From an uncultured Methanosarcinales archaeon (GTDB lineage Archaea > Nanobdellota > Nanobdellia > Woesearchaeales > GW2011-AR9), in the NCBI GenBank assembly GCA_964598745.1, contig CAZRCV010000001.1, positions 1 to 63,052 on the forward strand: DNA of 63,052 nt, given 5' to 3'. The translations under genes and the position numbers were made by a program. Shown here in pieces: positions 19,378-58,608 of this stretch (positions are counted from its first letter, which is position 1; each line of letters begins with the position of its first letter). Under the pieces are notes generated by a model that worked only from the letters and a program-made list of their open reading frames with translations, was not told the origin of the DNA and did no database searches.

Positions 19378-20331
19378 ATGTTTATTAGAAAAAGAGCTAC
19401 CTTATTGGCTATAGTTTTACTTTTTGTGTTTCTGGTATCATGTCAAAGAATTCCTGGAGGTTCCAACCCACAAGATACTTCTGCCGCCTTGCAGCAAGTT
19501 AAAATTGGAACACAGGGGTTGGGCTTAAGTTTAGTGCAAAACTATCCTCCCGCGACAATCTATGACCAAAATGAGCTAATTGCTTTATTGGAGGTTAAAA
19601 ATGTCGGCAACTATCCTCTTCAGCCAGAAGAATGTTTCCTACAGGTTACCGGTTTTGATCCAAATATCGTGCGAGGAGGCTTGGAGACGCCACGTTCTTG
19701 TGCAGAAAATTTGGAGTTATTGGAAGGCAAAACTGTTTATAATCTAGATGGTAGTTTAAACCAGATCGAATTCAGAGCGCCCAACATTGCTTTACCCTTT
19801 GGTATTTATGATTACCAGCCTAACTTGAATTTTGTAGCTTGTTATCATTATCAAACTACAGCCAGCCCACAGGTGTGTATCGATCCATTACTCTACCAAG
19901 TTTCTCCCTCACAAAAAGCCTGCAATTACAAAAGAAGCGTAGCCGTAAGTGGCGGCCAAGGCGGTCCGGTCGGGGTAAGCAACGTTAACATAGATATGGT
20001 TGGCAACAGAGCCATAGTAGATATTACTGTATCTAATTTAGGTGGTGGTACCGTTTTAAGTCCTTATTCTAATCTCATCGGCTGCGCTGAAACTGCCATT
20101 GATCGTCAAGATTTCGACAAGGTGGCTTATTCTATTAAGTTGGCTGATGGCAGTGGGGCCTGCAATCCTCGCGATGGTTTAGTAAGGTTAAGCAATGGGC
20201 GTGGAAAGATTATCTGCAGCTTTGACCTTCCCGGGACTAGCGCTTACGAAACGCCATTGTTAGTAGATTTAAGTTATAATTATCTGCAATCTATTTCCAA
20301 ACCAGTAAGAATAATTAAGACGCCGCAGTAA
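19378..20331 (+). CDS. Secreted lipoprotein, paralogue A (Cys-rich, CARDB-like beta domains)
   Basis: Signal peptide with lipobox-like LVSC. Even number of Cys. VDITVSNLGGGTV-type strand motif. Collinear similarity to the next ORF. Confidence 0.7.
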   Translation: MFIRKRATLLAIVLLFVFLVSCQRIPGGSNPQDTSAALQQVKIGTQGLGLSLVQNYPPATIYDQNELIALLEVKNVGNYPLQPEECFLQVTGFDPNIVRGGLETPRSCAENLELLEGKTVYNLDGSLNQIEFRAPNIALPFGIYDYQPNLNFVACYHYQTTASPQVCIDPLLYQVSPSQKACNYKRSVAVSGGQGGPVGVSNVNIDMVGNRAIVDITVSNLGGGTVLSPYSNLIGCAETAIDRQDFDKVAYSIKLADGSGACNPRDGLVRLSNGRGKIICSFDLPGTSAYETPLLVDLSYNYLQSISKPVRIIKTPQ

Positions 20332-24379: not shown

Positions 24380-26053
24380 GTGGTCCAGAAAACTGCAGAA
24401 GAATTGGCTAAAAAGCAGCGAGAGATTTCCATTGCCGAGTTCTTTGAAAAAAATAGGCACTTGTTAGGATTTGACAACCAAAGAAAGGCGTTGCTAACTG
24501 CTGTCAAGGAGGGCGTGGATAACGCTCTCGATGCCTGTGAGGAAGCCAGAATCCTGCCAGAAGTAAATGTAGAATTAATCCAGCTTTCTGAAACTAGGTT
24601 TAGGGTGGTGATGGAAGACAATGGTCCGGGGATAATCCGAAAACAAATCCCTAATATCTTTGCTAAGCTGTTGTATGGATCTAAGTTTCATAAACTATCG
24701 GCTACCAGAGGACAACAAGGGATAGGCATTTCCGCAGCGGTATTGTATTCCCAATTAACTACTGGTAAACCTGCCACAATTATTTCTAAAACTGAGAAAA
24801 ATAAACCAGCTATTTTAATGAAATTAAAGATTGATACTGCTACCAATAAACCTGAAATTTTGGAAGATAAAGAACAGCCTTGGAATGATAAAGAACATGG
24901 CACCAGAGTTGAAATTGACTTGGAAGCCAGTTACCAGAAAGGCCGGCAGTCGGTAGACGAATATTTGAAACAAACGGCTATCGTTAACCCCCATGCTACT
25001 ATAATTTACACCGATCCAACGGCTAATCAGATCATCTTCCCTCGCGCGGTAGAAGAACTGCCGCCTGAACCAAAAGAAATCAAGCCGCATCCATATGGAG
25101 TAGAACTAGGCCGGCTGATTCGCATGCTGGAAACAACCATCGCTAAAACACTGCAACAATTTCTAACCACTGAATTTGTCAGGGTTGGTTCGGGCACAGC
25201 CAAGGAAATTTGCCAAAATTCGGCCCTGTTGCCAACTACTAAACCTAATTCCATAACCCGAGAGGTGGCAGAAAACCTGCACAAAGGCATCAATAAAACG
25301 AAAATTATTGCTCCGCCCACGGACTGCATTTCACCGATAGGAGAAGCACAATTAGAAAAAGGCCTTAGAAAAGAGATCAATGCTGAACTCTACGTTGCAA
25401 CTACCAGGCCACCAGCAGTATATCGAGGCAACCCTTTTATCATAGAATGCGCTTTGGCTTACGGTGGTGAACAAGAAGCTGAATCAACAGTCCGGATTAT
25501 GAGGTTCGCCAACCGTGTGCCGCTGCAATACCAACAAGGAGCTTGCGCAATTACTAATGCCATTCAAAACACCTCTTGGAAATCGTATGGAATACAACAA
25601 AGCAAAGGATCCCTGCCTTTAGGCCCATGTACTATTGTAGTGCACATGACCTCTGTGTGGGTTCCTTTCACTTCTGAATCCAAGGAAGCCTTGGCCCATT
25701 ATCCAGAAATAATTAAAGAGATCAAGCTAGCACTACAGGAAGTAGGCAGGAAACTGGCTTCTTATGTTAATAAGAAAAAGAGATTAGGCGAGGAATCCAA
25801 AAAAAGAAGTTATATTGAAAAATATATCCCCTATGTAGCAGAAGCCTTAAAAGAATTACTAGGACTTAACGAAACAAAACAAAAAGAAGTGGAAGATAAT
25901 CTGGCTGAAGTTCTGGAACACGTAAGAGGAGAACTAGAACAGCTAGGCGTAGATAATCCCGATTATGATCCAGAATTGGCTGAGATCGGCAAGGAAGAAT
26001 CGGAAGATGAAGAAGGCCAAGAAAAGCAAACTAAATTAGGAGAAGAATTTTAA
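24380..26053 (+). CDS. top6B: DNA topoisomerase VI subunit B
   Basis: [19 protein letters not shown], Bergerat-fold N box EGVDNALDA and G box EDNGPGI. GTG start. Immediately upstream of top6A. Confidence 0.9.
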
Positions 26054-26064
26054 AAATTTACAAG

Positions 26065-27153
26065 ATGGTCCCCACAAACTCGATAGTTAATAAAATTAAG
26101 CATTTGGCTCAGGAAGTATATGAAAGTATCAAGTTAAAGAAACAGCCGCAGCTAGCCATGCCCATCCGGGCCTTAAGCAATGTTTCTTATGATGAGAAAG
26201 AAGGATTCTTTAAACTGTTAGACAAAGTGAAGACTAGAACTTTAACTGCCGCCACAATCAGGACGTTTGCCCAAACCTTGAAAATGATGAGCTTGTCTAA
26301 ACAGTTGGTAGAAACCGAGGATATTGCCACCAAGAGGGAAGCTTATTATGTCAGTAAAAACTGGGGTGAAGCTAGATTCAGAGAACAACCGGAATCAGAT
26401 GCTGTAATGGACGACATTGAAGCTTCCCTTAGCGTTAATCGTGAACAGATCGGCTTTATTGCAGATGAACACGGCGGGGATGTGGCAGGATCATTAATTG
26501 TTCATGATAAAGACGAAACTGGCAAGGCTATCAAGATTGATTGCACCAAATTTGGTTCAGGAGCTTATTCCATTCCTACCTCAGTAGAAGAATTGCGCTT
26601 CGAAACCAAAGCCAAGTTTATCTTAGCTATTGAAACAAAAGGTATGTTTGAACGATTGAACCGCCATGGTTATTGGAAGACAGCTAATTGCATTTTGGTT
26701 TCTATGGGTGGCGTTCCCTCGCGAGCCTGCCGTAGGTTTATCCGGAAATTAAGCGATGAACAAAAACTGCCGGTATATGTCTTTTGTGATGGAGATTTTT
26801 ATGGTTATTTTAACATTCATCGGACTCTTAAAGTTGGTTCAGGAAATGCAGCTCATATAAATGAGTTTTTCTGTGTACCAAAAGCACAATATATTGGAAT
26901 TACCCCACAGGATATTGAAGACTATAAACTTCCAACGCATCCTCTGAAAGATGTTGATGTAAAACGAGCTAAGGATGCCCTGAAGAACGATCCGTTTGTT
27001 CTTCACTATAAAGAATGGCAAAAAGCTGCTACCAAACAAATACAGATGAAAGCGCGTGCCGAACAGCAAGCCTTAGCTGCCTGGGGTCTTAATTTTGTAA
27101 TTGAAAAGTACCTTCCAGACAAACTTAAGAATCCAAAGACCTGGCTACCTTAA
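26065..27153 (+). CDS. top6A: DNA topoisomerase VI subunit A (Spo11 family)
   Basis: Catalytic-Tyr region KREAYYVS. Toprim motifs LAIETKGMF and VFCDGDFYG. Confidence 0.9.
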   Translation: MVPTNSIVNKIKHLAQEVYESIKLKKQPQLAMPIRALSNVSYDEKEGFFKLLDKVKTRTLTAATIRTFAQTLKMMSLSKQLVETEDIATKREAYYVSKNWGEARFREQPESDAVMDDIEASLSVNREQIGFIADEHGGDVAGSLIVHDKDETGKAIKIDCTKFGSGAYSIPTSVEELRFETKAKFILAIETKGMFERLNRHGYWKTANCILVSMGGVPSRACRRFIRKLSDEQKLPVYVFCDGDFYGYFNIHRTLKVGSGNAAHINEFFCVPKAQYIGITPQDIEDYKLPTHPLKDVDVKRAKDALKNDPFVLHYKEWQKAATKQIQMKARAEQQALAAWGLNFVIEKYLPDKLKNPKTWLP

Positions 27154-27512: not shown

Positions 27513-28100
27513 ATGAGAATTAAACTCTTAATGGTTTTAATCTTAAGTTTATTTCTTGTCTCCTGCGGAGGTTCAAACTTGAAAACAGCAATTTTACAAA
27601 CCAACCTTGGAACTATTGAAATTGAATTATTTAGCGAACAAATGCCGATAACTACCAACAATTTTATCGATTTAGCCAAACGTGGATTTTATGATAGTAC
27701 CCGCTTTCACAGGGTGATCGGCCCGAACCAAGTGCCACCAAAAGGGTTCATGATCCAAGGAGGAGATCCGCTCTCTAAAGAACCGTCTAAGAAATTCTTG
27801 TGGGGAACTGGCGGGCCAGGTTATGAGATCAAGGATGAATTTGTAGCTGGTTTATCCAACCTTCGTGGAACAATAGCCATGGCTAACCATGGCCCAAACA
27901 CTGGCGGCAGCCAGTTTTTTATCAATTTGCAAGACAATACTTACTTAGATTTCGATAAACCGCCACTGAGCAGCCAACACCCTGTGTTTGGTAAAGTCGT
28001 TAAAGGCATAGGCATCATAGACAAAATCGCGGCTGTTGATACCGATGAACAAGATAAACCTTTAACTGATGTAATAATAGAAAAAATTATTATTAAGTAA
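27513..28100 (+). CDS. Cyclophilin-type peptidyl-prolyl cis-trans isomerase, lipoprotein-anchored
   Basis: FHRVIG..FMIQGGDP, GTIAMANHGPNTGGSQFFINL motifs. Signal peptide with LVSCGG. Confidence 0.9.
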   Translation: MRIKLLMVLILSLFLVSCGGSNLKTAILQTNLGTIEIELFSEQMPITTNNFIDLAKRGFYDSTRFHRVIGPNQVPPKGFMIQGGDPLSKEPSKKFLWGTGGPGYEIKDEFVAGLSNLRGTIAMANHGPNTGGSQFFINLQDNTYLDFDKPPLSSQHPVFGKVVKGIGIIDKIAAVDTDEQDKPLTDVIIEKIIIK

Positions 28101-28716
28101 CTTTCTTTCCTATAGTCATTTGTTTATAAACACTTAACTCCGTCGGCACTGAAATGGTTTTTAGATTAAACTGCAAGAAACCAGAATCACTAATGATAAT
28201 ACCGCTTGGATTTAATTGAACCATAATTTTTGGTTCATAATCATCATGAATCGTTTTAAATATTGCTAATTTTCTCTCAAAATAGATATCAAAAAATGGC
28301 AGGTCCATGCTGAATACGTCTGCAAGAGTGAAATTCATAGTCACTAAAATATCTTGCCAATAGAAAGTAGTAGTTTGCTTATGGGTGGTAAATGGCACCC
28401 CTATGTTCTTGAGAATAGATTTAATCAATCCTGAACAATCACGTTTATCTACAAACTCCAAAGTAATTTTATTTACAGAGGGAAGCAAGTATTGAACAAA
28501 AAATAATGGATAAAGAATATCTGGCCCGCAACCAGGATAAAATAAAACAGGATTATTCTGAGGAATAGTTAACTTCTCAGAGTAATTTAATTGGTATAAT
28601 AAATTTAATTCTTCTTCAAATAAATAATTTAATAACTTACGGAAAGAAACTGGGCTTCTTTTGATTGCTCCAGAAGGGAAGGCAGTTTCTTCCACATAAC
28701 TAATAAATCCAGCCAC
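28093..28716 (-). CDS. Hypothetical protein (207 aa), weak Rossmann/methyltransferase-like motif
   Basis: VLFYPGCGPD resembles SAM-MTase motif I. No further motif confirmed. Confidence 0.4.
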   Translation of the reverse strand: MAGFISYVEETAFPSGAIKRSPVSFRKLLNYLFEEELNLLYQLNYSEKLTIPQNNPVLFYPGCGPDILYPLFFVQYLLPSVNKITLEFVDKRDCSGLIKSILKNIGVPFTTHKQTTTFYWQDILVTMNFTLADVFSMDLPFFDIYFERKLAIFKTIHDDYEPKIMVQLNPSGIIISDSGFLQFNLKTISVPTELSVYKQMTIGKKVT

Positions 28717-28737
28717 TAACAGTTTGATTCAAGAGAA

Positions 28738-28747
28738 ATATTTAAAA
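28738..28747 (+). promoter_or_regulatory. TATA-box-like element upstream of tRNA-Arg
   Basis: ATATTTAAAA centred about 28 nt upstream of tRNA position 1 (28772). tRNA-Cys and tRNA-Leu show the same spacing. Confidence 0.5.
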
Positions 28748-28771
28748 GTTGTTTACTTATTTAATGTTCAG

Positions 28772-28904
28772 GGGCCAGTAGCCTAGCCTGGAAACTTAGG
28801 GTAAATAGGGCGTCAGCCTTCTATCCTCGCGGAAAGATAGCTGAAGATCGTGGGTTCAAATAGTAGCTGCATTTCGCAGTTTGTTGAAAGTCCCTCCTGG
28901 CCCG
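28772..28904 (+). tRNA. tRNA-Arg(UCU) with three predicted introns (D-loop, 37/38, T-loop)
   Basis: Hand-folded. Acceptor GGGCCAG/CTGGCCC plus G73. D-arm GCCT-AGCCTGG[~28792-28805]TA-GGGC. Anticodon stem TCAGC/GCTGA with loop CTTCTA[28824-28838]A. T-stem GTGGG/CCCTC with ~30 nt (about 28860-28889) inserted in the TTCAA..T loop. Mature length ~74 nt. Confidence 0.7.
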
Positions 28905-28905
28905 C

Positions 28906-28913
28906 TTTTTTTT
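28906..28913 (+). terminator. Oligo-T terminator after tRNA-Arg
   Basis: Run of 8 T starting 2 nt after the discriminator base. Archaeal transcription terminates at oligo-T tracts. Confidence 0.5.
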
Positions 28914-31796: not shown

Positions 31797-32174
31797 ATGG
31801 CAAATAAGTCTGAAAATAAATATACACGTTCTGATTTTCGCATTACTAGAAACAATGTGTTGGGCGATTATATTAATGCTTGGAATCCCCATTGGTCAGC
31901 TCATGAAGAAATTAAGATTATTACTGCTAAAGGTCTTGTGGCCTTTTCTCAAGATTTAGCGCTCATTAAACAACCTATCCAACGATATAAACAGTATATC
32001 AGTAACAAATATCCAACTAGATTAAAACAACTTTTAGAGGAAAGCGACTCTGCTGTTGTTGAAAAAATAAATGCCTTAGTAGAATTGTTTAACCAAGAAT
32101 TAAAACAAGGGCATCAAGATAAAGAGGTTTTTCTGAAATATTATAATGCAGTAAAAGTCTTGATGGGGAAATAA
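31797..32174 (+). CDS. Hypothetical protein (125 aa)
   Basis: ATG ORF. No recognisable motif. Confidence 0.35.
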   Translation: MANKSENKYTRSDFRITRNNVLGDYINAWNPHWSAHEEIKIITAKGLVAFSQDLALIKQPIQRYKQYISNKYPTRLKQLLEESDSAVVEKINALVELFNQELKQGHQDKEVFLKYYNAVKVLMGK

Positions 32175-40496: not shown

Positions 40497-40829
40497 TTAT
40501 TTAAGAAAGTCTGGGCTTTTAAAATTTCCTACTATTTTTTTAAAATGAAGATAAAAAGAGATAGCTGCGCCAAAAGCAAAAACAGCAAAACCATATAATT
40601 GAGAAAATGGCGCCAGCCAGATAGTTATTAATGCCAGTAAGACTAATGATACCGAAAAATAATATCTTTTGGATCGGTTAAGATAAACTGCCCTTCCGTT
40701 GATTATGCCTAGCAACAACAACAAAAAATAAAAACTAACAGTTAACCTAAAGGTTACTGCAATTAATAAAACTATTACAAAAAACAACAAGATTAAAAAT
40801 TCGGTGGTTCTACGCGTTATTAGGCTCAT
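40497..40829 (-). CDS. Hypothetical three/four-TM membrane protein (110 aa)
   Basis: 4-nt ATGA-type overlap with the upstream ORF (40826..41563). Strongly hydrophobic. Confidence 0.4.
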   Translation of the reverse strand: MSLITRRTTEFLILLFFVIVLLIAVTFRLTVSFYFLLLLLGIINGRAVYLNRSKRYYFSVSLVLLALITIWLAPFSQLYGFAVFAFGAAISFYLHFKKIVGNFKSPDFLK

Positions 40830-41563
40830 TTTTCTGAACTTTTAAGCATTCTTGTTATTACAATCAGGGTAATGATAATAATAGCTAAAATTAACCCGAT
40901 TCTTGTTTTGGAAATCAGCAATAGCCAATATATAGCCGTTAAACCTAAGTAAAAAAAATAGTTAATCCTATCACCAAAGAACAGATTTAAACCGTCCATC
41001 TGTTTGATAGGAACCAATGAACATATAGCCATAACCAAGTTCAACAGCAGAGCTTGCCCTAAGAGATAGCTGTCAGGCACAAAATACCAGCCAATAGCTG
41101 AAAGTGTAGCCAAGGAAAGATTAGAAATTATACCTGTTGAAGCTATGGATGCATTATCAGTATAGGAAAAACCATACCTGAATTCACCCAATCGCTGCTT
41201 AACTATGAAGGTATTAGTTATAGTTCCGATTAACACCAGAGGAATTCTACCCGCAGAAATAACTGCAAAAACCAGTGCTGCTGCCAACCCGGACCACCAC
41301 GGCTTAAATTCGCCGCGATACCCTTCGTTAAGGCCCTTAATTTTTTGTGCTGATAATTTTACTAAAATTGTAACCAAAACAACAAGGCCAGTAACAAATA
41401 AATTTCTTATCCCTGTAGTAGCATTAAACTGTCCTATCCCCCAGTCGCGGAAGGAGAATACAAACGCAGTTACTAGTACTACTGCTACCAGGCCAAATAA
41501 TTCCCCTTTGTCAAACTTAAAAAATTCCTGTACCTGGGCTAATTTTTCTTGCCGACTGACCAT
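40826..41563 (-). CDS. Polytopic membrane protein, M50 (site-2 protease)-like but lacking HExxH
   Basis: LLNLVMAICSLVPIKQMDGLNLF resembles the NLxxAxxNLLPxxPLDGG motif of S2P peptidases. VKLSAQ sits where HExxH would be expected. Confidence 0.4.
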   Translation of the reverse strand: MVSRQEKLAQVQEFFKFDKGELFGLVAVVLVTAFVFSFRDWGIGQFNATTGIRNLFVTGLVVLVTILVKLSAQKIKGLNEGYRGEFKPWWSGLAAALVFAVISAGRIPLVLIGTITNTFIVKQRLGEFRYGFSYTDNASIASTGIISNLSLATLSAIGWYFVPDSYLLGQALLLNLVMAICSLVPIKQMDGLNLFFGDRINYFFYLGLTAIYWLLLISKTRIGLILAIIIITLIVITRMLKSSEK

Positions 41564-42834: not shown

Positions 42835-43772
42835 TTTTTCTTCATTAACCACACATTGTAACCATTATCCCCTTTTTGAACAAAAATTTTGTTAAGCAAA
42901 CTAAATTTATCCGAAACGAATAATTCCCAACCGGGCCGCCCAATAAACTGCAGTATCCCACCGGGCTTAAGGATGTAATTAATTTGATGATATACTTCGT
43001 TTAATCTTTTCTCATCTTTAGAAGTAACGTAAAAAATGCAAAAATCAAAATAAGATTCATTAAAATTAATATCCAGATCTTCCAAAAAACATTTTTTAAC
43101 CTCTACTTCTGTTTTAGATATCTTAACATTTTTTCTAGCTGCAGTAACGTTAGTAGATCTTTCGTCAAAAGCAAATATCTTTTGTTGAGCAAACTGCCCT
43201 GCCTCGATAGCTAGCGCTGCATCTTTACAAAAGCCGATTAATAATTTGCGATTAGGGGAAAATCCAGACTGCCGTATTAAGTGATAAGCTAAATCTCCCT
43301 TAAATTAAGCCGAATGGGGAAAAACACGATAACTGCGGTTATTGGCCTCTCGAATAGAGTTATCAATCCCCACAAAATATTCTGTTCCATTGTAGAATGC
43401 AATGACCAATAATTTGGGCTGCTTGAGATCTAAAACTGGATTAACAGGGTGTAAGAACCGAAATAGTTTTTCTGCCACTATCTTAGCTGCATTTAACCTA
43501 TTCTCTTGGCCGCTTACTCCTTCTATCAAGATCTTAAAACGAGTATTATTAGTAAATAGGCCTGCATCCAAATTATGGAAATCTAGATTCAACAAATCTT
43601 TTGTTCTGGTTACTGCTACCAGCAGCCTACGCACTGATTGCAGATTTAATTGGTTGTCAGAAATAAACTCCAAAACATTTTTTTCCACCAAGGGATTAAT
43701 ATTTATCTTCTCTTTAATTTCCAATGCCGCTGTAGGTTCAAGTCCGTCGTTGACTAAAGCAAAAAATTTCAT
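42831..43772 (-). pseudogene. THUMP-domain RNA methyltransferase (Trm14/COG0116-like) interrupted by one in-frame TAA
   Basis: ORFs 43305..43772 (THUMP-like, ending ..RSYRVFPHSA*) and 42831..43304 are in the same frame, with a single TAA at 43305-43307. Hand translation continues FKGDLAYHLI..LLIGFCKDAALAIEAG..ILKPGGIL (class I MTase fold). The motif I glycines are degenerate. Confidence 0.6.
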
Positions 43773-43918: not shown

Positions 43919-46546
43919 TCAAACTCCTGGACTAAGTTTATCATCGCTTTGTATCTTCTCTAAATGTTCGTCAACAACTTTTTCACTTTCTGAACCTGAG
44001 CTAGGCTGTGATTGTTCTGAACTAGGCAAATTTAAATTCGTAACAGAATTAGGCTCATCAAAATTACTGCCATCAGTAGGACTAAAACTACCCCGAGTTA
44101 ATTCTAAAGGAACTTCTTCATCAACAACTATTGCTGCGGCAGCCAATTTATCACCTGGGCTTAATCTAATAACGCGGACGCCTTGAGTGGCCCTGCCAAT
44201 TAAAGAAATTTCTGAACAACGAACCCGGATGGCAATTCCCTTTTCAGTAACTAGCATCAGCCCCTCTGAACCATTAACTAATTTAATAGCTTTAACTGGC
44301 CCATTCTTTTCTGTTATTTTGATATTAGTTACGCCTCTTCCACCACGATTGCAAAGCCGATAATCCTCCACTGAAGTTCGTTTTCCATAACCATTTTCTG
44401 TTAAGGTTAACACCTGTTTAGTTTGTTCAGCGGTAATCATGCCTATCACCTCATCCTCTTTGGTTAAGCGAATACCTCTTACTCCGCCTGCGGTACGTCC
44501 CATAGTTCGCACCATTTGTTCATTAAAGCGATTGGCATAACCATTTTTGGTAGCTAAAATTATCTCCTCATTGCCAGAAGTGTATTTAACACTAACTAGT
44601 GTATCCTGATTTTCTAAAGTTATGGCTCTGATTCCTCCTTTTCTAGGATGAGAAAATTCTAGCAGGCTTGTCTTTTTAACTGTGCCGCGCTTGGTAGCCA
44701 TAAACAAATTGCCTTCCTTAAAATTAAGGACTGGAATAACTGCTGAAATTTGTTCGCCTTCTTCTAGTTCCAGTACATTAGAAACATGTTTTCCTTTAGC
44801 TTGCCTGCTACCTTCCGGAAGAGAATAAACTTTCTTCCAATAAACTTGGCCCCTGTCTGTAAAAAATAGTAAATAGTCATGAGTTGAAGTAATGTAAAGG
44901 CTCTTAACAAAATCCTCCTCATTAATTCCCGCTGCTTTAACGCCTTTTCCACCACGGCTTTGTGTTTTATATGTATCAAGGGGAATTCTTTTAATATAAC
45001 CAGAGTTGGTAATGGTAACTGCCATGGTAGCCTCTTCAATCAATTCTTCCATATCGACTTCTTCATCATCGTCATTAGGCACAATCGTCGATCTACGAAC
45101 ATCGCCATAACTTAGTTTTAATTCTGATAACTCTTCCTTGATTAAAGAAAGAACTTTTGCTACAGAACCAAGAATCTCTAAATAATAATTAATCCTTTCT
45201 AGAAGTTCAGTATGTTCCATTTTAATCTTTTCTTGTTCCAAGGAAGCCAACTTTTGCAGCCGCAGTTCTAGGATAGCTTTAACTTGGGTTTCAGATAAAG
45301 AATAATTTTGCATTAAAAACCTGGCTGCGTCCTCCACAGTTCGAGAATTTCTGATTCCGGGAATGACTTGATCTAAATTTGCGAGAGCTACCAATAATCC
45401 TTCCAATACTTGAACCCGCTTCTGGGCTTGCTCTAATTCATATTTAGTTCTTCGGACAATCACTGTTTTACGGTGGTCAATGTGAGCCTCGATAATTTGT
45501 TTAAGGCTTAGAATTTGTGGCTGTGAGTTAACCAAGGCTAACATAATTATTCCAAAAGAAACTTTCAACCGGCTAAATTTATACAGCTGATTTAGTATAA
45601 CTTGCGGATCAGTTTCTTTTTTAAGTTCTATTACAATGCGAATACCTTCCCGATCAGATTCGTCATTAATATTTTTGATCCCATCGACAGTTTTATCCTT
45701 AACCAAATCAGCAATTTGCTTAATTAGCTCCTCTTTGTTTACCTGATAAGGAATTTCAGTGACAATTATCTTATCACTAATTATTTTGCAGACCGACATT
45801 ATTGTAACTTTTCCCCGGCCATTAACATAAGCAGAAATTAAAGGCGAGCCACAACCAACTTCACCGCCAGTAGGGAAATCTGGGCCAGGGATGATTTTGA
45901 TCAATTCTTCAGTATTAATTTCTGGGTTGTCGATAGTAGCGATAATAGCATTACAGACTTCAGAAAGGTTGTGTGGCGGCAGATTAGTAGCCATTCCCAC
46001 GGCAATGCCGGAAGAGCCATTAACCAATAAATTTGGCACTAAAGAAGGCAAAACCTCTGGCTCTTTCAGCGATCCATCAAAATTATCTTTGAAATCAACA
46101 GTGTTCTTGTCTATATCTATTAATATCTCCTCAGCCAATTTTTGCAGTTTGGCCTCAGTGTAACGCATCGCTGCTGCAGAATCTCCATCAATAGACCCAA
46201 AGTTACCCTGTCCCCTAATTAATGGATAACGCAAAGAAAAGTCTTGGGCCATGCGCACTAGTGAATCATAAACTGCCGTATCACCATGAGGATGATACTT
46301 GCCTAAACAGTCTCCAACAATACGAGCGCATTTTTTGAATGGTTTGTTGCTCATAAGCCCCATTTCGTACATACTGTAAAGAATTCTTCTATGCACCGGC
46401 TTCAATCCATCGCGCACATCAGGCAAAGCCCGGCCCACAATCACCGACATGGCATAATTAATATAAGCTGTTTTCATTTCCTCTTCAATTACACGAGAAA
46501 AGATGTGATTGTTTTCAGCAGGAGGATCAGCTGGTAGAGTTGCCAT
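43919..46546 (-). CDS. gyrA: DNA gyrase subunit A
   Basis: [26 protein letters not shown], catalytic-Tyr motif [12 protein letters not shown]-terminal beta-pinwheel repeats and an acidic/Ser tail. Confidence 0.95.
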
Positions 46547-47915: not shown

Positions 47916-48143
47916 ATTAAGTCTAGTAGTGCTGGTTTTTAAGCCTATCGATCATCTTTCTTTAAAATTAATACCCTTGCTGTTAAGCTTACAGGAGCCA
48001 CTACAATGTAAGAAATCAGTTTTTTGATTTTTTCATCCCTGGAATATAGGTTGTTAAAATAAATTACTGCACGTTAAACTATTACTTTACTATTTTATAA
48101 TAATAAATAAAGTTTTTAAACCGTGTTACCCTTGATAAAAAAT

Positions 48144-48620
48144 ATGGGCTGGTTATTCAAAAAGAAAAAAGTAATTCCGAAGGTACCATTTCCTGAAACT
48201 ATTCCTAGCAGTTATGGAACTCTAAGGTTTCCAGAAAAGTTAAAGGAGCGGATAATTGAACCTGAAGACATTCAAAGTGCTGCCGGGCTAACGGAAGAAT
48301 CGTCTGAGCCTGCAGGCCAGGACTTAGATCTAGACGAAAATAACCGTAATATCGGCGCGCAAGAAGAACTGCCACCCTTGCCAGAAGCGCCAGCTGTTAT
48401 TACACGAAGCGAACCATTGTATGTTAAAAAAGATGTTTATCAAAGGATATTAGGAGAAATTGGAAACTTGAAGGACGATTTATTGGGGTTAAGTGAAACT
48501 AACGGAGTTCTAGAAAATTCAGAGTATAATGAAGAAAGTAACTTTGAAAAGTTGCGTAAAGCGATGAAAAATATCCATGATCGTTTACTGCAAGTGGACA
48601 AAGTATTATTCAAATCGTAA
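48144..48620 (+). CDS. Coiled-coil protein, paralogue 1 (N-terminal amphipathic basic segment, acidic/Pro linker)
   Basis: The ATG at 48144 (MGWLFKKKKV) is preferred over the GTG at 48123. The C-terminal module PLYVKKDVYQRILGEIGNLKDDL..LRKAMKNIHDRLLQVDKVL is shared with the next ORF. Confidence 0.45.
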   Translation: MGWLFKKKKVIPKVPFPETIPSSYGTLRFPEKLKERIIEPEDIQSAAGLTEESSEPAGQDLDLDENNRNIGAQEELPPLPEAPAVITRSEPLYVKKDVYQRILGEIGNLKDDLLGLSETNGVLENSEYNEESNFEKLRKAMKNIHDRLLQVDKVLFKS

Positions 48621-48631
48621 GGTGATTTCAT

Positions 48632-48859
48632 ATGGAAAGGATGCCGGTTTTTATAAAGGTGGATGATTATGAGGCTGTTCTTAGCTTGGTCAAAATGGTA
48701 CGCAAAAAATTAGATGAGGCTAAAGAAACTATCCTAAAAGTCAATGATCTAAAAAATGAAGAAGATCACCAATTAGAAACTTGGCAGAATTCCTTAGCTG
48801 AAATTGAGAAGAAAGTTGATTTCATAGATCATTCCCTTAGTGAGCCTGAAGAATTTTGA
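48632..48859 (+). CDS. Coiled-coil protein, paralogue 2 (75 aa, module only)
   Basis: AGGTGAT SD 5 nt upstream. PVFIKVDDYEAVLSLVKMVRKKL..WQNSLAEIEKKVDFIDHSL aligns with the C-terminus of ORF 48144..48620. Confidence 0.5.
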   Translation: MERMPVFIKVDDYEAVLSLVKMVRKKLDEAKETILKVNDLKNEEDHQLETWQNSLAEIEKKVDFIDHSLSEPEEF

Positions 48860-49362
48860 AAAGGAGTTCGAAATTGAGCCATAAAAAAACTAAGCATAAG
48901 CCTAGCAGCAGGAAGAGTGCTCCCAAAAATCTCCTTTCTGAACGAGCACCAGAGTATATGATTCAAATTAATGACCCTAAGATGCTGCGAAAAGACATCC
49001 TGGAATCGCTTCGCGAGGTTATTATTTTTATGCAAAGTTATGAAAAGTTCAGAAAAATACAAGAAGAGAAAATATCTTTGTTCTCTTCTTTGAAAACTAG
49101 TGTAAAGGAATTGAATTCTTTAATAGATAATAAGCTGCGAAGTTATCTTCCTAAAGGAAAGTTAAGGCCAGTAATGGACAACAGGCCAGAAGCAGAATCC
49201 AGTACTGAAATAGCCAAAGAGCAGGAAATCCCTCCAGCTAAGAAGGTAATTAAGCCAGAACCAAAGAAAGAGCCAGAAGAAGAGTACAAACCAAGAGATA
49301 CCTTAGAAGAATTAGAAACACAGCTCAGTGATATAGAAGCACAGTTGAAACGAATGGATTAA
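48856..49362 (+). CDS. Coiled-coil protein, paralogue 3 (basic N-terminus, Pro/Lys/Glu-rich tail)
   Basis: The TTG start overlaps the upstream stop (TTGA). An alternative TTG at 48874 is preceded by AAGGAG. The central helical module is a looser match to the two upstream ORFs. Confidence 0.45.
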   Translation: MKRSSKLSHKKTKHKPSSRKSAPKNLLSERAPEYMIQINDPKMLRKDILESLREVIIFMQSYEKFRKIQEEKISLFSSLKTSVKELNSLIDNKLRSYLPKGKLRPVMDNRPEAESSTEIAKEQEIPPAKKVIKPEPKKEPEEEYKPRDTLEELETQLSDIEAQLKRMD

Positions 49363-49409: not shown

Positions 49410-49565
49410 GCGGACGTGCCGGAGTGGTCAAACGGGATAGCTTGTTTGGCAATAATGCTAAACGAATCCAAACTCAAGTCCTAGAAGTGAGACTAACGAT
49501 CCTAACGTGCAAAGGAGTCATCTATTGGCTTAGTGCCTACGCAGGTTCGAACCCTGCCGTCCGCA
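49410..49565 (+). tRNA. tRNA-Leu(CAA), class II, with two predicted introns (about 30/31 and 37/38)
   Basis: Hand-folded. Acceptor GCGGACG/CGTCCGC plus A73. D-arm CCG-GAGTGGTCAAA-CGG with G13.A22. Long variable arm TGGCTTAGTGCCTAC. T-arm GCAGG-TTCGAAC-CCTGC. The only CU-NNN-R loop is CTCAAG (49473-49478). Model: stem ATAG[49441-49471]A / TCTAT, with a second intron at 49479-49519. Mature length 84 nt. Boundaries are uncertain. Confidence 0.6.
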
Positions 49566-49598
49566 TACCTTTTTAAATTAATAAACTTTCTTTCTATT

Positions 49599-50933
49599 AT
49601 GTCATTAGATGTCTGCGCCATTGGCGGCTTTTCTAAAACTGAAGGCAACTCTGTAGCGATTAAGGTTGATAATGAAGTAGTAATTCTAGACATGGGATTG
49701 AGTATGGCTGATTATGTTAAATTTCAAGAAGATTTTGAAGACATTAGCAATAGAAATTATAAAACACTGTTGAAAGTTAAGGCTGTGCCCGATTACAGTT
49801 TTATTGATGACTGGAAAGATTTGGTTATAGCCATTATTCCAAGCCACGGGCACTTAGATCACGTTGGAGCGATCCCTTTTGCTGCGCCGTTGTTTCCGAG
49901 GGTACCCATAATTTCTACGCCCTATTCCATTGAAGTGCTTAAAACTATTCTACAAGACGAACAAATTCAATTGCCTAACAAACTAATCACTGTGAACTTA
50001 AACGATAGTTATCAAATTTCTAGTAAAATTACTATCGAAATGGTTAACGTTACTCATTCCATTCCCCATACAGCAATCGTAATAATACATACCCCTTATG
50101 GAAAAATCATGTATGCCAATGATTTTAAGTTGGATGATACTCCCGTCTTGGGTAAAAAACCAAACTATAGCCGCATTAAGGAGCTGGGAGAAGAAGGGAT
50201 AAAATTATTGATTATGAATTGCCTGTATGCCCATGAAAAAAAGAAATGCCCTTCTGAATCCGTAGCCCGGCAGATGTTAAAGGAAGTTATGCTCAGCACA
50301 GAGTCGGATGGAAAAGCCATTGTTGTAACTACTTTTTCTTCACATATCGCTAGGCTAAAAAGTATTATTGAAATGGGCAAGAAACTTAACCGCGCTGTTG
50401 TCTTCTTGGGAAGATCGCTAGATAAATACGTTACTGCTGCTGAAAGATTAGGTTTAGTGCAGTTTAGCCAAGAAGTGGAAATAGAAAAATATAACGACAA
50501 AATAGTTAAAAAACTTAAACAAATCCAAAAGAATGGCCGAGAAAAATATGTCATTGTCTGCACTGGGCACCAAGGCGAGCCGCGAGCAATTTTATCGCGA
50601 ATAGCTAGAAAAGAATTGCCCTTTATTTTTCAGGACAACGATTTAGTTATTTTTAGTTGCACCGTGATACCCGTTGAGGCCAATCTTAAAAATAGAGAGC
50701 AACTGGAACGGTCATTAAGTAAATATAATGTAAGATTGTTCAAAGATGTACACGTTTCTGGCCATGGCGCATTAGAAGACCATCACGAGTTAATTGCCAT
50801 GGTCAAGCCGCAGCACATTATGCCCGTACACGCCGAACCAGCTAAAGCCAAAATGGTTCAAGAGTTAGCTACAAAAATGGGTTATCAAAATACGCACATT
50901 ATGGAAGACGGGAAAAGAATTTCTTTAGACTAA
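49599..50933 (+). CDS. rnj: Archaeal RNase J (beta-CASP metallo-beta-lactamase ribonuclease)
   Basis: HGHLDHVGAIP (HxHxDH), beta-CASP layout, C-terminal VHVSGHG and PVHAEP motifs. The ATG at 49599 was chosen because the track start at 49533 overlaps tRNA-Leu. Confidence 0.8.
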   Translation: MSLDVCAIGGFSKTEGNSVAIKVDNEVVILDMGLSMADYVKFQEDFEDISNRNYKTLLKVKAVPDYSFIDDWKDLVIAIIPSHGHLDHVGAIPFAAPLFPRVPIISTPYSIEVLKTILQDEQIQLPNKLITVNLNDSYQISSKITIEMVNVTHSIPHTAIVIIHTPYGKIMYANDFKLDDTPVLGKKPNYSRIKELGEEGIKLLIMNCLYAHEKKKCPSESVARQMLKEVMLSTESDGKAIVVTTFSSHIARLKSIIEMGKKLNRAVVFLGRSLDKYVTAAERLGLVQFSQEVEIEKYNDKIVKKLKQIQKNGREKYVIVCTGHQGEPRAILSRIARKELPFIFQDNDLVIFSCTVIPVEANLKNREQLERSLSKYNVRLFKDVHVSGHGALEDHHELIAMVKPQHIMPVHAEPAKAKMVQELATKMGYQNTHIMEDGKRISLD

Positions 50934-58454: not shown

Positions 58455-58608
58455 TGGGGCTGCCCGGATTTGAACCGGGGTTCAGTGGTTTTTTTGTTTT
58501 CGGTCATCGCCGAGGGCTCACCCAAACCACTAGTGATAAATTACTCGAAGCGGGAGTGCAGTTCACTTAAATCAGCATCCCGCCATCACCAAGCTACACT
58601 ACAGCCCC
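58455..58608 (-). tRNA. tRNA-Pro(UGG) with two predicted introns (~50 nt in the D-loop, 31 nt at 37/38)
   Basis: Hand-folded on the minus strand. Acceptor GGGGCTG/CAGCCCC plus A73. D-arm GTGT-AGCTTGGT[58587-58538]A-TCAC. Anticodon stem AGTGG/CCACT with loop TTTGGG[58520-58490]A. T-arm CCCGG-TTCAAAT-CCGGG. Mature length 73 nt. Confidence 0.7.

Follow-up and report, generated by a model that had tools for sequence, protein, structure and literature searches.

Is the interval 28772–28904 on the forward strand a working tRNA gene, and where exactly would its introns begin and end? The question arises because a first-pass annotation of the window, by which we mean the whole 63,052-nt stretch of DNA analysed here, had proposed in this interval a tRNA-Arg(UCU) gene with introns in the D-loop, at position 37/38 and in the T-loop. 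ARAGORN called neither the unspliced gene nor any other tRNA in the window, and 28772–28904 had no match to the Rfam tRNA family (RF00005), whether searched at the gathering threshold or, with permissive filters, at E ≤ 5. This failure is to be expected of a gene with three insertions that total 58 nt. After in-silico removal of the three introns, ARAGORN called a 75-nt tRNA-Arg(tct) with a clean cloverleaf and all four arms. We are highly confident that 28772–28904 (+) holds a functional tRNA-Arg(UCU) gene from an archaeon of the Woesearchaeota type (DPANN), made up of four exons and three short introns.

Gene structure and identity

The gene and its flanking signals are laid out as follows.

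28737..28749, +, putative TATA-like box AAATATTTAAAAG, A/T-rich, centre ~27 nt upstream of the first tRNA base
28772..28791, +, exon 1: acceptor 5' strand GGGCCAG, U8 A9, D-stem 5' strand GCCU, D-loop AGCCUGG through G19
28792..28804, +, intron 1: 13 nt, AAACUUAGGGUAA, in the D-loop after G19
28805..28823, +, exon 2: AUA, D-stem 3' strand GGGC, G26, anticodon stem 5' strand UCAGC, loop CUUCUA
28824..28838, +, intron 2: 15 nt, UCCUCGCGGAAAGAU, canonical 37/38 position
28839..28860, +, exon 3: A38, anticodon stem 3' strand GCUGA, variable loop AGAUC, T-stem 5' strand GUGGG, T-loop UUCAAA (54–59)
28861..28890, +, intron 3: 30 nt, UAGUAGCUGCAUUUCGCAGUUUGUUGAAAG, T-loop position 59/60
28891..28904, +, exon 4: U60, T-stem 3' strand CCCUC, acceptor 3' strand CUGGCCC, discriminator G73
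28906..28913, +, run of eight T, beginning one base past the discriminator

The anticodon UCU lies at 28820–28822, and the gene encodes no CCA. In the spliced product the acceptor stem has 7 bp, and the conserved U8, A14, G18-G19, A21, U33 and purine 37 are readable, as are T54-Psi55-C56, A58 and G53-C61; the D-loop is AGCCUGGAUA, the anticodon loop CUUCUAA and the T-loop UUCAAAU. The spliced cloverleaf is iso-energetic with the minimum-free-energy fold of the same molecule. One mismatch, U50.U64, interrupts the T-stem GUGGG/CCCUC; it is common to many Woesearchaeota-type genes, including those without introns, and reads as a lineage feature rather than a sign of decay. Upstream, a purine-rich stretch visible in the sequence precedes the TATA-like box, which, judging from the usual archaeal TATA spacing, is a putative archaeal promoter. 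Downstream, the T8 run is likely the transcription stop, oligo-T being a known termination signal for archaeal RNA polymerase.

The intron positions were recovered without prior assumptions. All position pairs in the 133-nt interval that fit the bulge-helix-bulge geometry were scanned. This geometry, which agrees with the motif as published (PMC4090602), has a 4-bp helix and, on either strand, a 3-nt bulge 3' of the helix that is cut behind its second base. Every compatible combination of candidate cuts was spliced and passed to ARAGORN. The procedure recovers the intron triple (20,33), (52,67), (89,119), in gene coordinates, whose 75-nt product matches the orthologues, whereas the identical procedure yielded a full-length tRNA in 0 of 300 dinucleotide shuffles and 0 of 300 random 133-nt segments of the window. 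Another pair of cuts in the anticodon region, after 28827 and 28841 (central helix 4/4, outer helix 4 bp), gave a product without an anticodon arm and no ARAGORN isotype, and was rejected. The gene is thus a multi-intron tRNA gene in which three intervening sequences each have a splice motif of their own and whose joint removal restores a single tRNA. The tRNA-Arg(UCU) identity and the three introns of the first-pass annotation are borne out, the latter by the agreement of motif scan, ARAGORN and relatives, and the exon segments that it quoted can be read from the sequence at 28772–28791, 28806–28823, 28839–28859 and 28892–28904.

Splice junctions and their motifs

The comparison with relatives was chosen as the basis for placing the junctions, because folding alone misses the D-arm register and shows the T-arm only partly. 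A pattern scan of species-representative genomes returned at least 119 tRNA-Arg(UCU) genes, 110 of them fully parsed. A further 38 genes, each with an insert in the D-loop, came from a second scan, which covered metagenomes and brings the related genes from both scans together to at least 157. The D-arm part of exon 1 agrees base for base with the 5' part of the at least 119 genes. A metagenome scan with the exact exons 1 and 2 of this gene had no match, and thus found no near-identical strain. Among the matches listed, intron-less relatives have the D-loop sequence GCCTAGCCTGG-ATA-GGGC (GG-ATA-GGGC) and the T-loop sequence TTCRAAT; across the 110 parsed genes listed, the D-loop is GGATAGGGC, or GGAA, GGACA, GGAGA or GGATT. 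These loops lead to a mature D-loop AGCCUGGAUA and T-loop UUCAAAU, in agreement with the motif-derived cuts. On the combined evidence of motif and intron-less orthologues, two introns of the first-pass annotation need a correction of one base. Its D-loop intron, given as approximately 28792–28805 (14 nt), is at the right site but runs from 28792 to 28804 (13 nt), and its T-loop intron, given as approximately 28860–28889, keeps its length of 30 nt but runs from 28861 to 28890. The boundaries of the 15-nt intron at 37/38, 28824–28838, are unchanged.

The motif around the T-loop intron is a strict bulge-helix-bulge. In the central helix, UUCA (28855–28858) pairs with UGAA (28885–28888) at four of four positions, between the bulges AA^U (28859–28861) and AG^U (28889–28891); the T-stem forms the outer helix, and the inner helix consists of an A-U pair followed by a 6-bp hairpin, AGCUGC (28865–28870)/GCAGUU (28876–28881). 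The 59/60 intron was found in at least 25 distinct genes. The central helix is fully paired in 23, position 57 covaries with its partner in the intron (A-U in 10 of the 25, G-C in 13, G-U in 1 and G.A in 1), and the 3' bulge is AGU in 20/25. In a 15-gene alignment 94% of the cells are paired, the covariation score is 0.436 as against 0.205 in shuffles, with 0/500 reaching the observed value, and all shifted registers are far worse. The first-pass annotation had placed this intron in a bulge-helix-bulge context, with a helix stacked on the T-stem and a hairpin inside the intron. The motif scan bears this out, as does covariation for the central helix, and the details that it listed are all present (TTCA 28855–28858 facing TGAA 28885–28888, the AGT bulge at 28889–28891, the hairpin and the U50.U64 mismatch).

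The D-loop intron has a relaxed, bulge-helix-loop form of the motif, which, like hBH and HBh', is among the accepted relaxed forms. Exon GCCU (28786–28789) pairs with intron GGGU (28799–28802) at four of four positions, two of them G.U; the 3' bulge is AA^A at 28803–28805, there is no inner helix, and the 5' splice site falls within a 9-nt hairpin loop instead of a bulge. The outer helix has 4 bp (C11-G, C12-G, U13-A, A14-U) and is one base off the register of the mature D-stem. At least 39 distinct genes carry an intron of 13–39 nt at this site after G19. Every one of the 39 has at least 3/4 pairs in the central helix, and all end with a 4-nt complement of exon GCCU (at most one mismatch), exactly two bases, and then ATAGGGC. 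In a register test, 98.4% of cells are paired as proposed, as against 34–62% when shifted by one column, and 8/8 aligned genes keep the register; the variation behind this figure is one-sided, since the search pattern fixed the exon side. L007 was left out of the alignment, its D-arm insert lying off the common site and probably at another position.

At 37/38, the central helix CUUC/AAAG has 3/4 pairs and a C35.A mismatch, flanked by bulges UA^U and AU^A of 3 nt each, with the 5-bp anticodon stem as outer helix and CC/GG as inner helix. We class this as a predicted relaxed form of the bulge-helix-bulge. The first two anticodon bases are known to belong to the 4-bp helix of the motif (PMC4090602). 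The intron is carried by at least 28 related genes, and its AAAG variant occurs also in L006, L033, L109 and L116.

The strict motifs do not emerge from minimum-free-energy folding: the structure with all motifs has −35.8 kcal/mol, 13.7 higher than the −49.5 kcal/mol of the optimum. Of the checks that the first-pass annotation had suggested, folding is therefore answered only in part, since the T-arm motif is partly reproduced but the D-arm prefers CCUGG/UUAGG, one base out of the proposed register. The same holds for the demand that a bulge-helix-bulge-like motif exist at the D-loop junction, which the comparative register test satisfies and the fold, with its shifted helix, does not. With the sites, their motifs, the conservation and covariation of these and a conserved mature sequence demonstrated, we infer that the three segments are excised.

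Orthologues with zero to three introns

By intron content, the fully parsed genome matches listed, 110 in all, fall into the following classes.

No intron: 74 genes
37/38 only: 19 genes
59/60 only: 6 genes
37/38 and 59/60: 4 genes
D-loop and 37/38: 2 genes
D-loop only: 1 gene
D-loop and 59/60: 2 genes
All three introns: 2 genes (L074, L106)

In the metagenome set, the D-loop intron stands alone in 18 loci, with the 59/60 intron in six, with the 37/38 intron in six, and with both in a further six, among which L132 has the same gene sequence as L106. Introns at the identical three sites are thus found in L074, L106, L122, L128, L132, L145, L149 and L154, and close relatives cover every presence/absence combination of the three. 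Introns at the D-loop and 59/60 sites are also present in Asgard-type (Promethearchaeota) genes, such as L025, L123 and L137. Once spliced, the window gene is identical at 70/75 positions to spliced L004 and at 69/75 to the intron-less Woesearchaeota gene L036, and the stem differences from both are compensated (27-43, for example, is U-A as against A-U).

The neighbourhood of the gene is conserved as well. The order Top6B-Top6A-cyclophilin-207-aa ORF-tRNA recurs in loci labelled Woesearchaeota or Nanoarchaeia, which can be ranked by the identity of their Top6A to that of the window.

L074: Top6A 81% identical, all three introns
L049: 76%, 59/60 intron
L027: 75%, 59/60 intron
L063: 75%, 37/38 intron
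L101: 74%, 37/38 intron
L111: 74%, 37/38 and 59/60 introns
L057: 72%, 59/60 intron
L056: 71%, 59/60 intron
L041: 71%, no introns
L002: 61%, no introns

The shared synteny indicates that these are true orthologues of one tRNA-Arg(UCU) gene with zero to three introns, and they form a tidy data set on intron turnover. It would be tempting to regard the positions after G19, at 37/38 and at 59/60 in this one orthologous, syntenic gene as recurrent insertion hot spots or as ancient intron positions. This idea is speculative and, in our judgement, rather unlikely; if it were true, the locus would be a natural series for studying the gain and loss of tRNA introns and their co-evolution with a broad-specificity EndA.

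Several further observations concern these loci. The 207-aa ORF (28093–28716, −) has no Pfam match and lies beside the tRNA-Arg gene, at 33–49% identity, in at least 13 related loci; it is a predicted lineage-specific protein. Inserts at other places occur in the tRNA-Arg(UCU) genes of L048 (between T-stem and T-loop, about 53/54) and of L078 and L081 (in the anticodon stem, within its 3' strand). The Top6B/Top6A and the tRNA-Arg(UCU) of L114 are archaeal, although the record is titled 'Acidobacteriota bacterium'. Among the contigs titled 'uncultured Methanosarcinales archaeon' (L004, L006, L007, L009, L048, L051, L054, L062, L101), several share with the Woesearchaeota-type locus at least one gene flanking the tRNA; L004 and L006 have no flanking-protein match and resemble the Woesearchaeota-type group in tRNA sequence only. 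The taxonomic labels of L114 and of the Methanosarcinales-titled contigs look unreliable, through mis-binning or mislabelling.

Alternative readings

Three other accounts of the interval have to be weighed. The gene might be cut where the first-pass annotation placed its junctions (28792–28805 and 28860–28889), which would leave a D-loop AGCCUGGUA and a T-loop UUCAAGU. ARAGORN accepts the resulting 74-nt product, too, as tRNA-Arg(tct), but none of the 110 fully parsed relatives listed reads GGTAGGGC or TTCAAGT, the rule of cutting two bases into each 3-nt bulge gives the corrected sites instead, and the D-loop sites so placed have, as read from the sequence, only 2/4 pairs in their central helix; we consider this account very unlikely. 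Alternatively, only the 37/38 and T-loop inserts might be introns, the 13-nt D-loop insert being kept in a 23-nt D-loop. Such a loop would far exceed the 9–10 nt of intron-less relatives, and some syntenic orthologues have the insert and others lack it, with identical flanking D-loop sequence in both. Nor would retention account for at least 39 distinct inserts of 13–39 nt at the exact site, each with the GCCU complement, 2 nt and ATAGGGC. A relaxed motif that lacks an inner helix and has G.U at 2/4 central pairs, together with a fold that prefers another register, does speak for retention, which we nevertheless regard as the least credible of the three.

The remaining possibility, which strikes us as hardly credible, is that of a decaying pseudogene, in which three insertions in a tRNA-Arg gene go unremoved while a working copy is found elsewhere in the genome. 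Against decay, the insertions lie exactly at the insert sites of the relatives, with motif pairing and covariation preserved, the exons are intact, and the differences from orthologues are compensated. That standard detectors miss the gene could be taken as a sign of it, as could the U.U mismatch of the T-stem, but the GUGGG/CCCUC stem with this mismatch is shared by many relatives, intron-less ones included. Our view is limited to 63 kb, and an intact second tRNA-Arg(UCU) copy could sit elsewhere in the genome; against this, the syntenic locus holds a tRNA-Arg(UCU) across the lineage, a promoter-like box and a T-run stand on either side of the gene, and the two other tRNA genes of the window are multi-intron as well. 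We therefore retain the reading of a functional gene with four exons and three introns.

Proposed transcription and splicing, and a predicted EndA

A functional gene of this kind would be transcribed from the A/T-rich promoter ~27 nt upstream, and transcription would stop at the T8 run. In the precursor, each junction pair would fold into a motif of the bulge-helix-bulge type, with a 4-bp helix and cuts two bases into the 3-nt bulges; sequence and comparison support such a fold at the T-loop and D-loop sites, and at 37/38 it would be relaxed. EndA would cut after 28791/28804, 28823/28838 and 28860/28890, an RtcB-type ligase would join the exons, and RNase P and a 3' nuclease would trim the ends. 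CCA would be added post-transcriptionally, because the gene encodes none. The steps from EndA cleavage through ligation and trimming to CCA addition are modelled on established archaeal tRNA processing.

The 13-nt D-loop intron, with its 5' site in a 9-nt loop, leads us to predict that the organism has a broad-specificity EndA. According to PMC5829648, bulge-helix-loop substrates need broad-specificity forms of EndA, and DPANN EndA variants with an inserted loop are linked to more tRNA disruption. Neither EndA nor RtcB was found in the 40 of the window's 68 ORFs of at least 120 aa that were scanned against Pfam. ORFs without any Pfam match are located at 19378–20331, 28093–28716, 31797–32174, 40826–41563, 43305–43772, 48123–48620 and 48856–49362.

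Other hidden tRNA genes in the window

The window encodes archaeal housekeeping genes, among them a ribosomal-protein block including L3, L4 and SecY, as well as Nop5, fibrillarin, RFC, PCNA, Hef and topoisomerase VI A and B. It has both a DNA gyrase A subunit (43919–46546, −) and topoisomerase VI A and B (24380–27153, +). Two further tRNA genes are hidden in it and were matched by Rfam with permissive filters only.

49410–49565, +, tRNA-Leu(CAA), 38.6 bits (threshold 29)
58455–58608, −, tRNA-Pro(UGG), 36.6 bits

The tRNA-Leu gene has a 31-nt intron at 30/31 within the anticodon stem (49441–49471; strict motif, 10-bp inner helix) and a 41-nt intron at 37/38 (49479–49519); once it is spliced, ARAGORN recognises an 84-nt tRNA-Leu(caa). 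The tRNA-Pro gene has a D-loop intron of ~48 nt (58541–58588, ±1) that, like the one in the Arg gene, directly follows G18-G19, and a second intron, of 31 nt, at 37/38 (58490–58520); ARAGORN calls the spliced 75-nt product tRNA-Pro(tgg). All three tRNA genes of the window are thus multi-intron, with seven introns in total. The Leu and Pro genes exceed the Rfam gathering score yet are absent from the default gathering run and appear with permissive filters, which indicates that the speed filters, and not the score threshold, hide intron-rich tRNAs. An ORF for an RNase J / beta-CASP protein (49533–50933, +; GTG start) shares 33 nt with the 3' end of the tRNA-Leu gene, and the true start codon of this ORF is probably further downstream. 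Weak Rfam matches to snR11, snoU54, Yfr1 and IS009 were far below their thresholds and were taken as chance.

Comparison with known systems

The main value of these results is one of annotation, and no new mechanism is implied. Neither ARAGORN nor Rfam with default filters reports any of the three tRNA genes of the window, and for the Arg gene even permissive filters do not help. As a result of such hidden tRNAs, genomes of the lineage look tRNA-deficient unless intron-aware tools or manual curation are used. This apparent loss distorts inferences on completeness and codon usage, and matches a warning given by Kaneta et al. 2018 (PMC5829648), namely that incomplete DPANN tRNA sets point to undetected disrupted genes. 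The same paper reports a marked rise in tRNA disruption, with a multiple-intron class, in DPANN including Woesearchaeota and Pacearchaeota. What the parts considered here offer for this superphylum are genome-level counts, and they treat neither the Arg gene nor a syntenic series nor three recurring sites.

Three-intron tRNAs, the 59/60 site and heavy tRNA disruption in DPANN have all been published, and the gene is ordinary for its lineage; the 59/60 and D-loop positions, for instance, are already on record, as are intron lengths of 11–129 nt (PMC4090602). What may be new is the recurrence of the three sites in a syntenic tRNA-Arg(UCU) across Woesearchaeota-type genomes, with the D-loop and 59/60 sites also in Asgard-type genes; a limited literature search found no paper on such a recurring three-site syntenic series.

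Methanopyrus kandleri pre-tRNA-Glu(UUC), as presented in PMC5829648, has a relaxed D-loop intron together with a canonical intron. It is like the Arg gene in pairing a relaxed D-loop intron with one at 37/38 and in that cleavage in the D-loop depends on the breadth of EndA; it differs in having two introns, in coming from a euryarchaeon, and in an HBh' motif as against the bulge-helix-loop. A eukaryotic nuclear gene also has introns in the same three arms, but a different splicing enzyme acts there and no evolutionary link is implied.

The three-intron tRNAs of Thermoproteales offer another parallel, as illustrated by tRNA-Pro(UGG) of Pyrobaculum islandicum, whose introns lie at 25/26, 37/38 and 56/57 (Sugahara et al. 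2007, as cited in PMC4090602). Like the Arg gene, such tRNAs combine one canonical with two non-canonical introns in bulge-helix-bulge or relaxed motifs, with removal by EndA, and are missed by ordinary tRNA finders. In contrast to these genes of Crenarchaeota, the Arg gene belongs to DPANN/Woesearchaeota, has 37% GC and no sign of thermophily, and places its introns in another tRNA and at other sites, after G19, at 37/38 and at 59/60.
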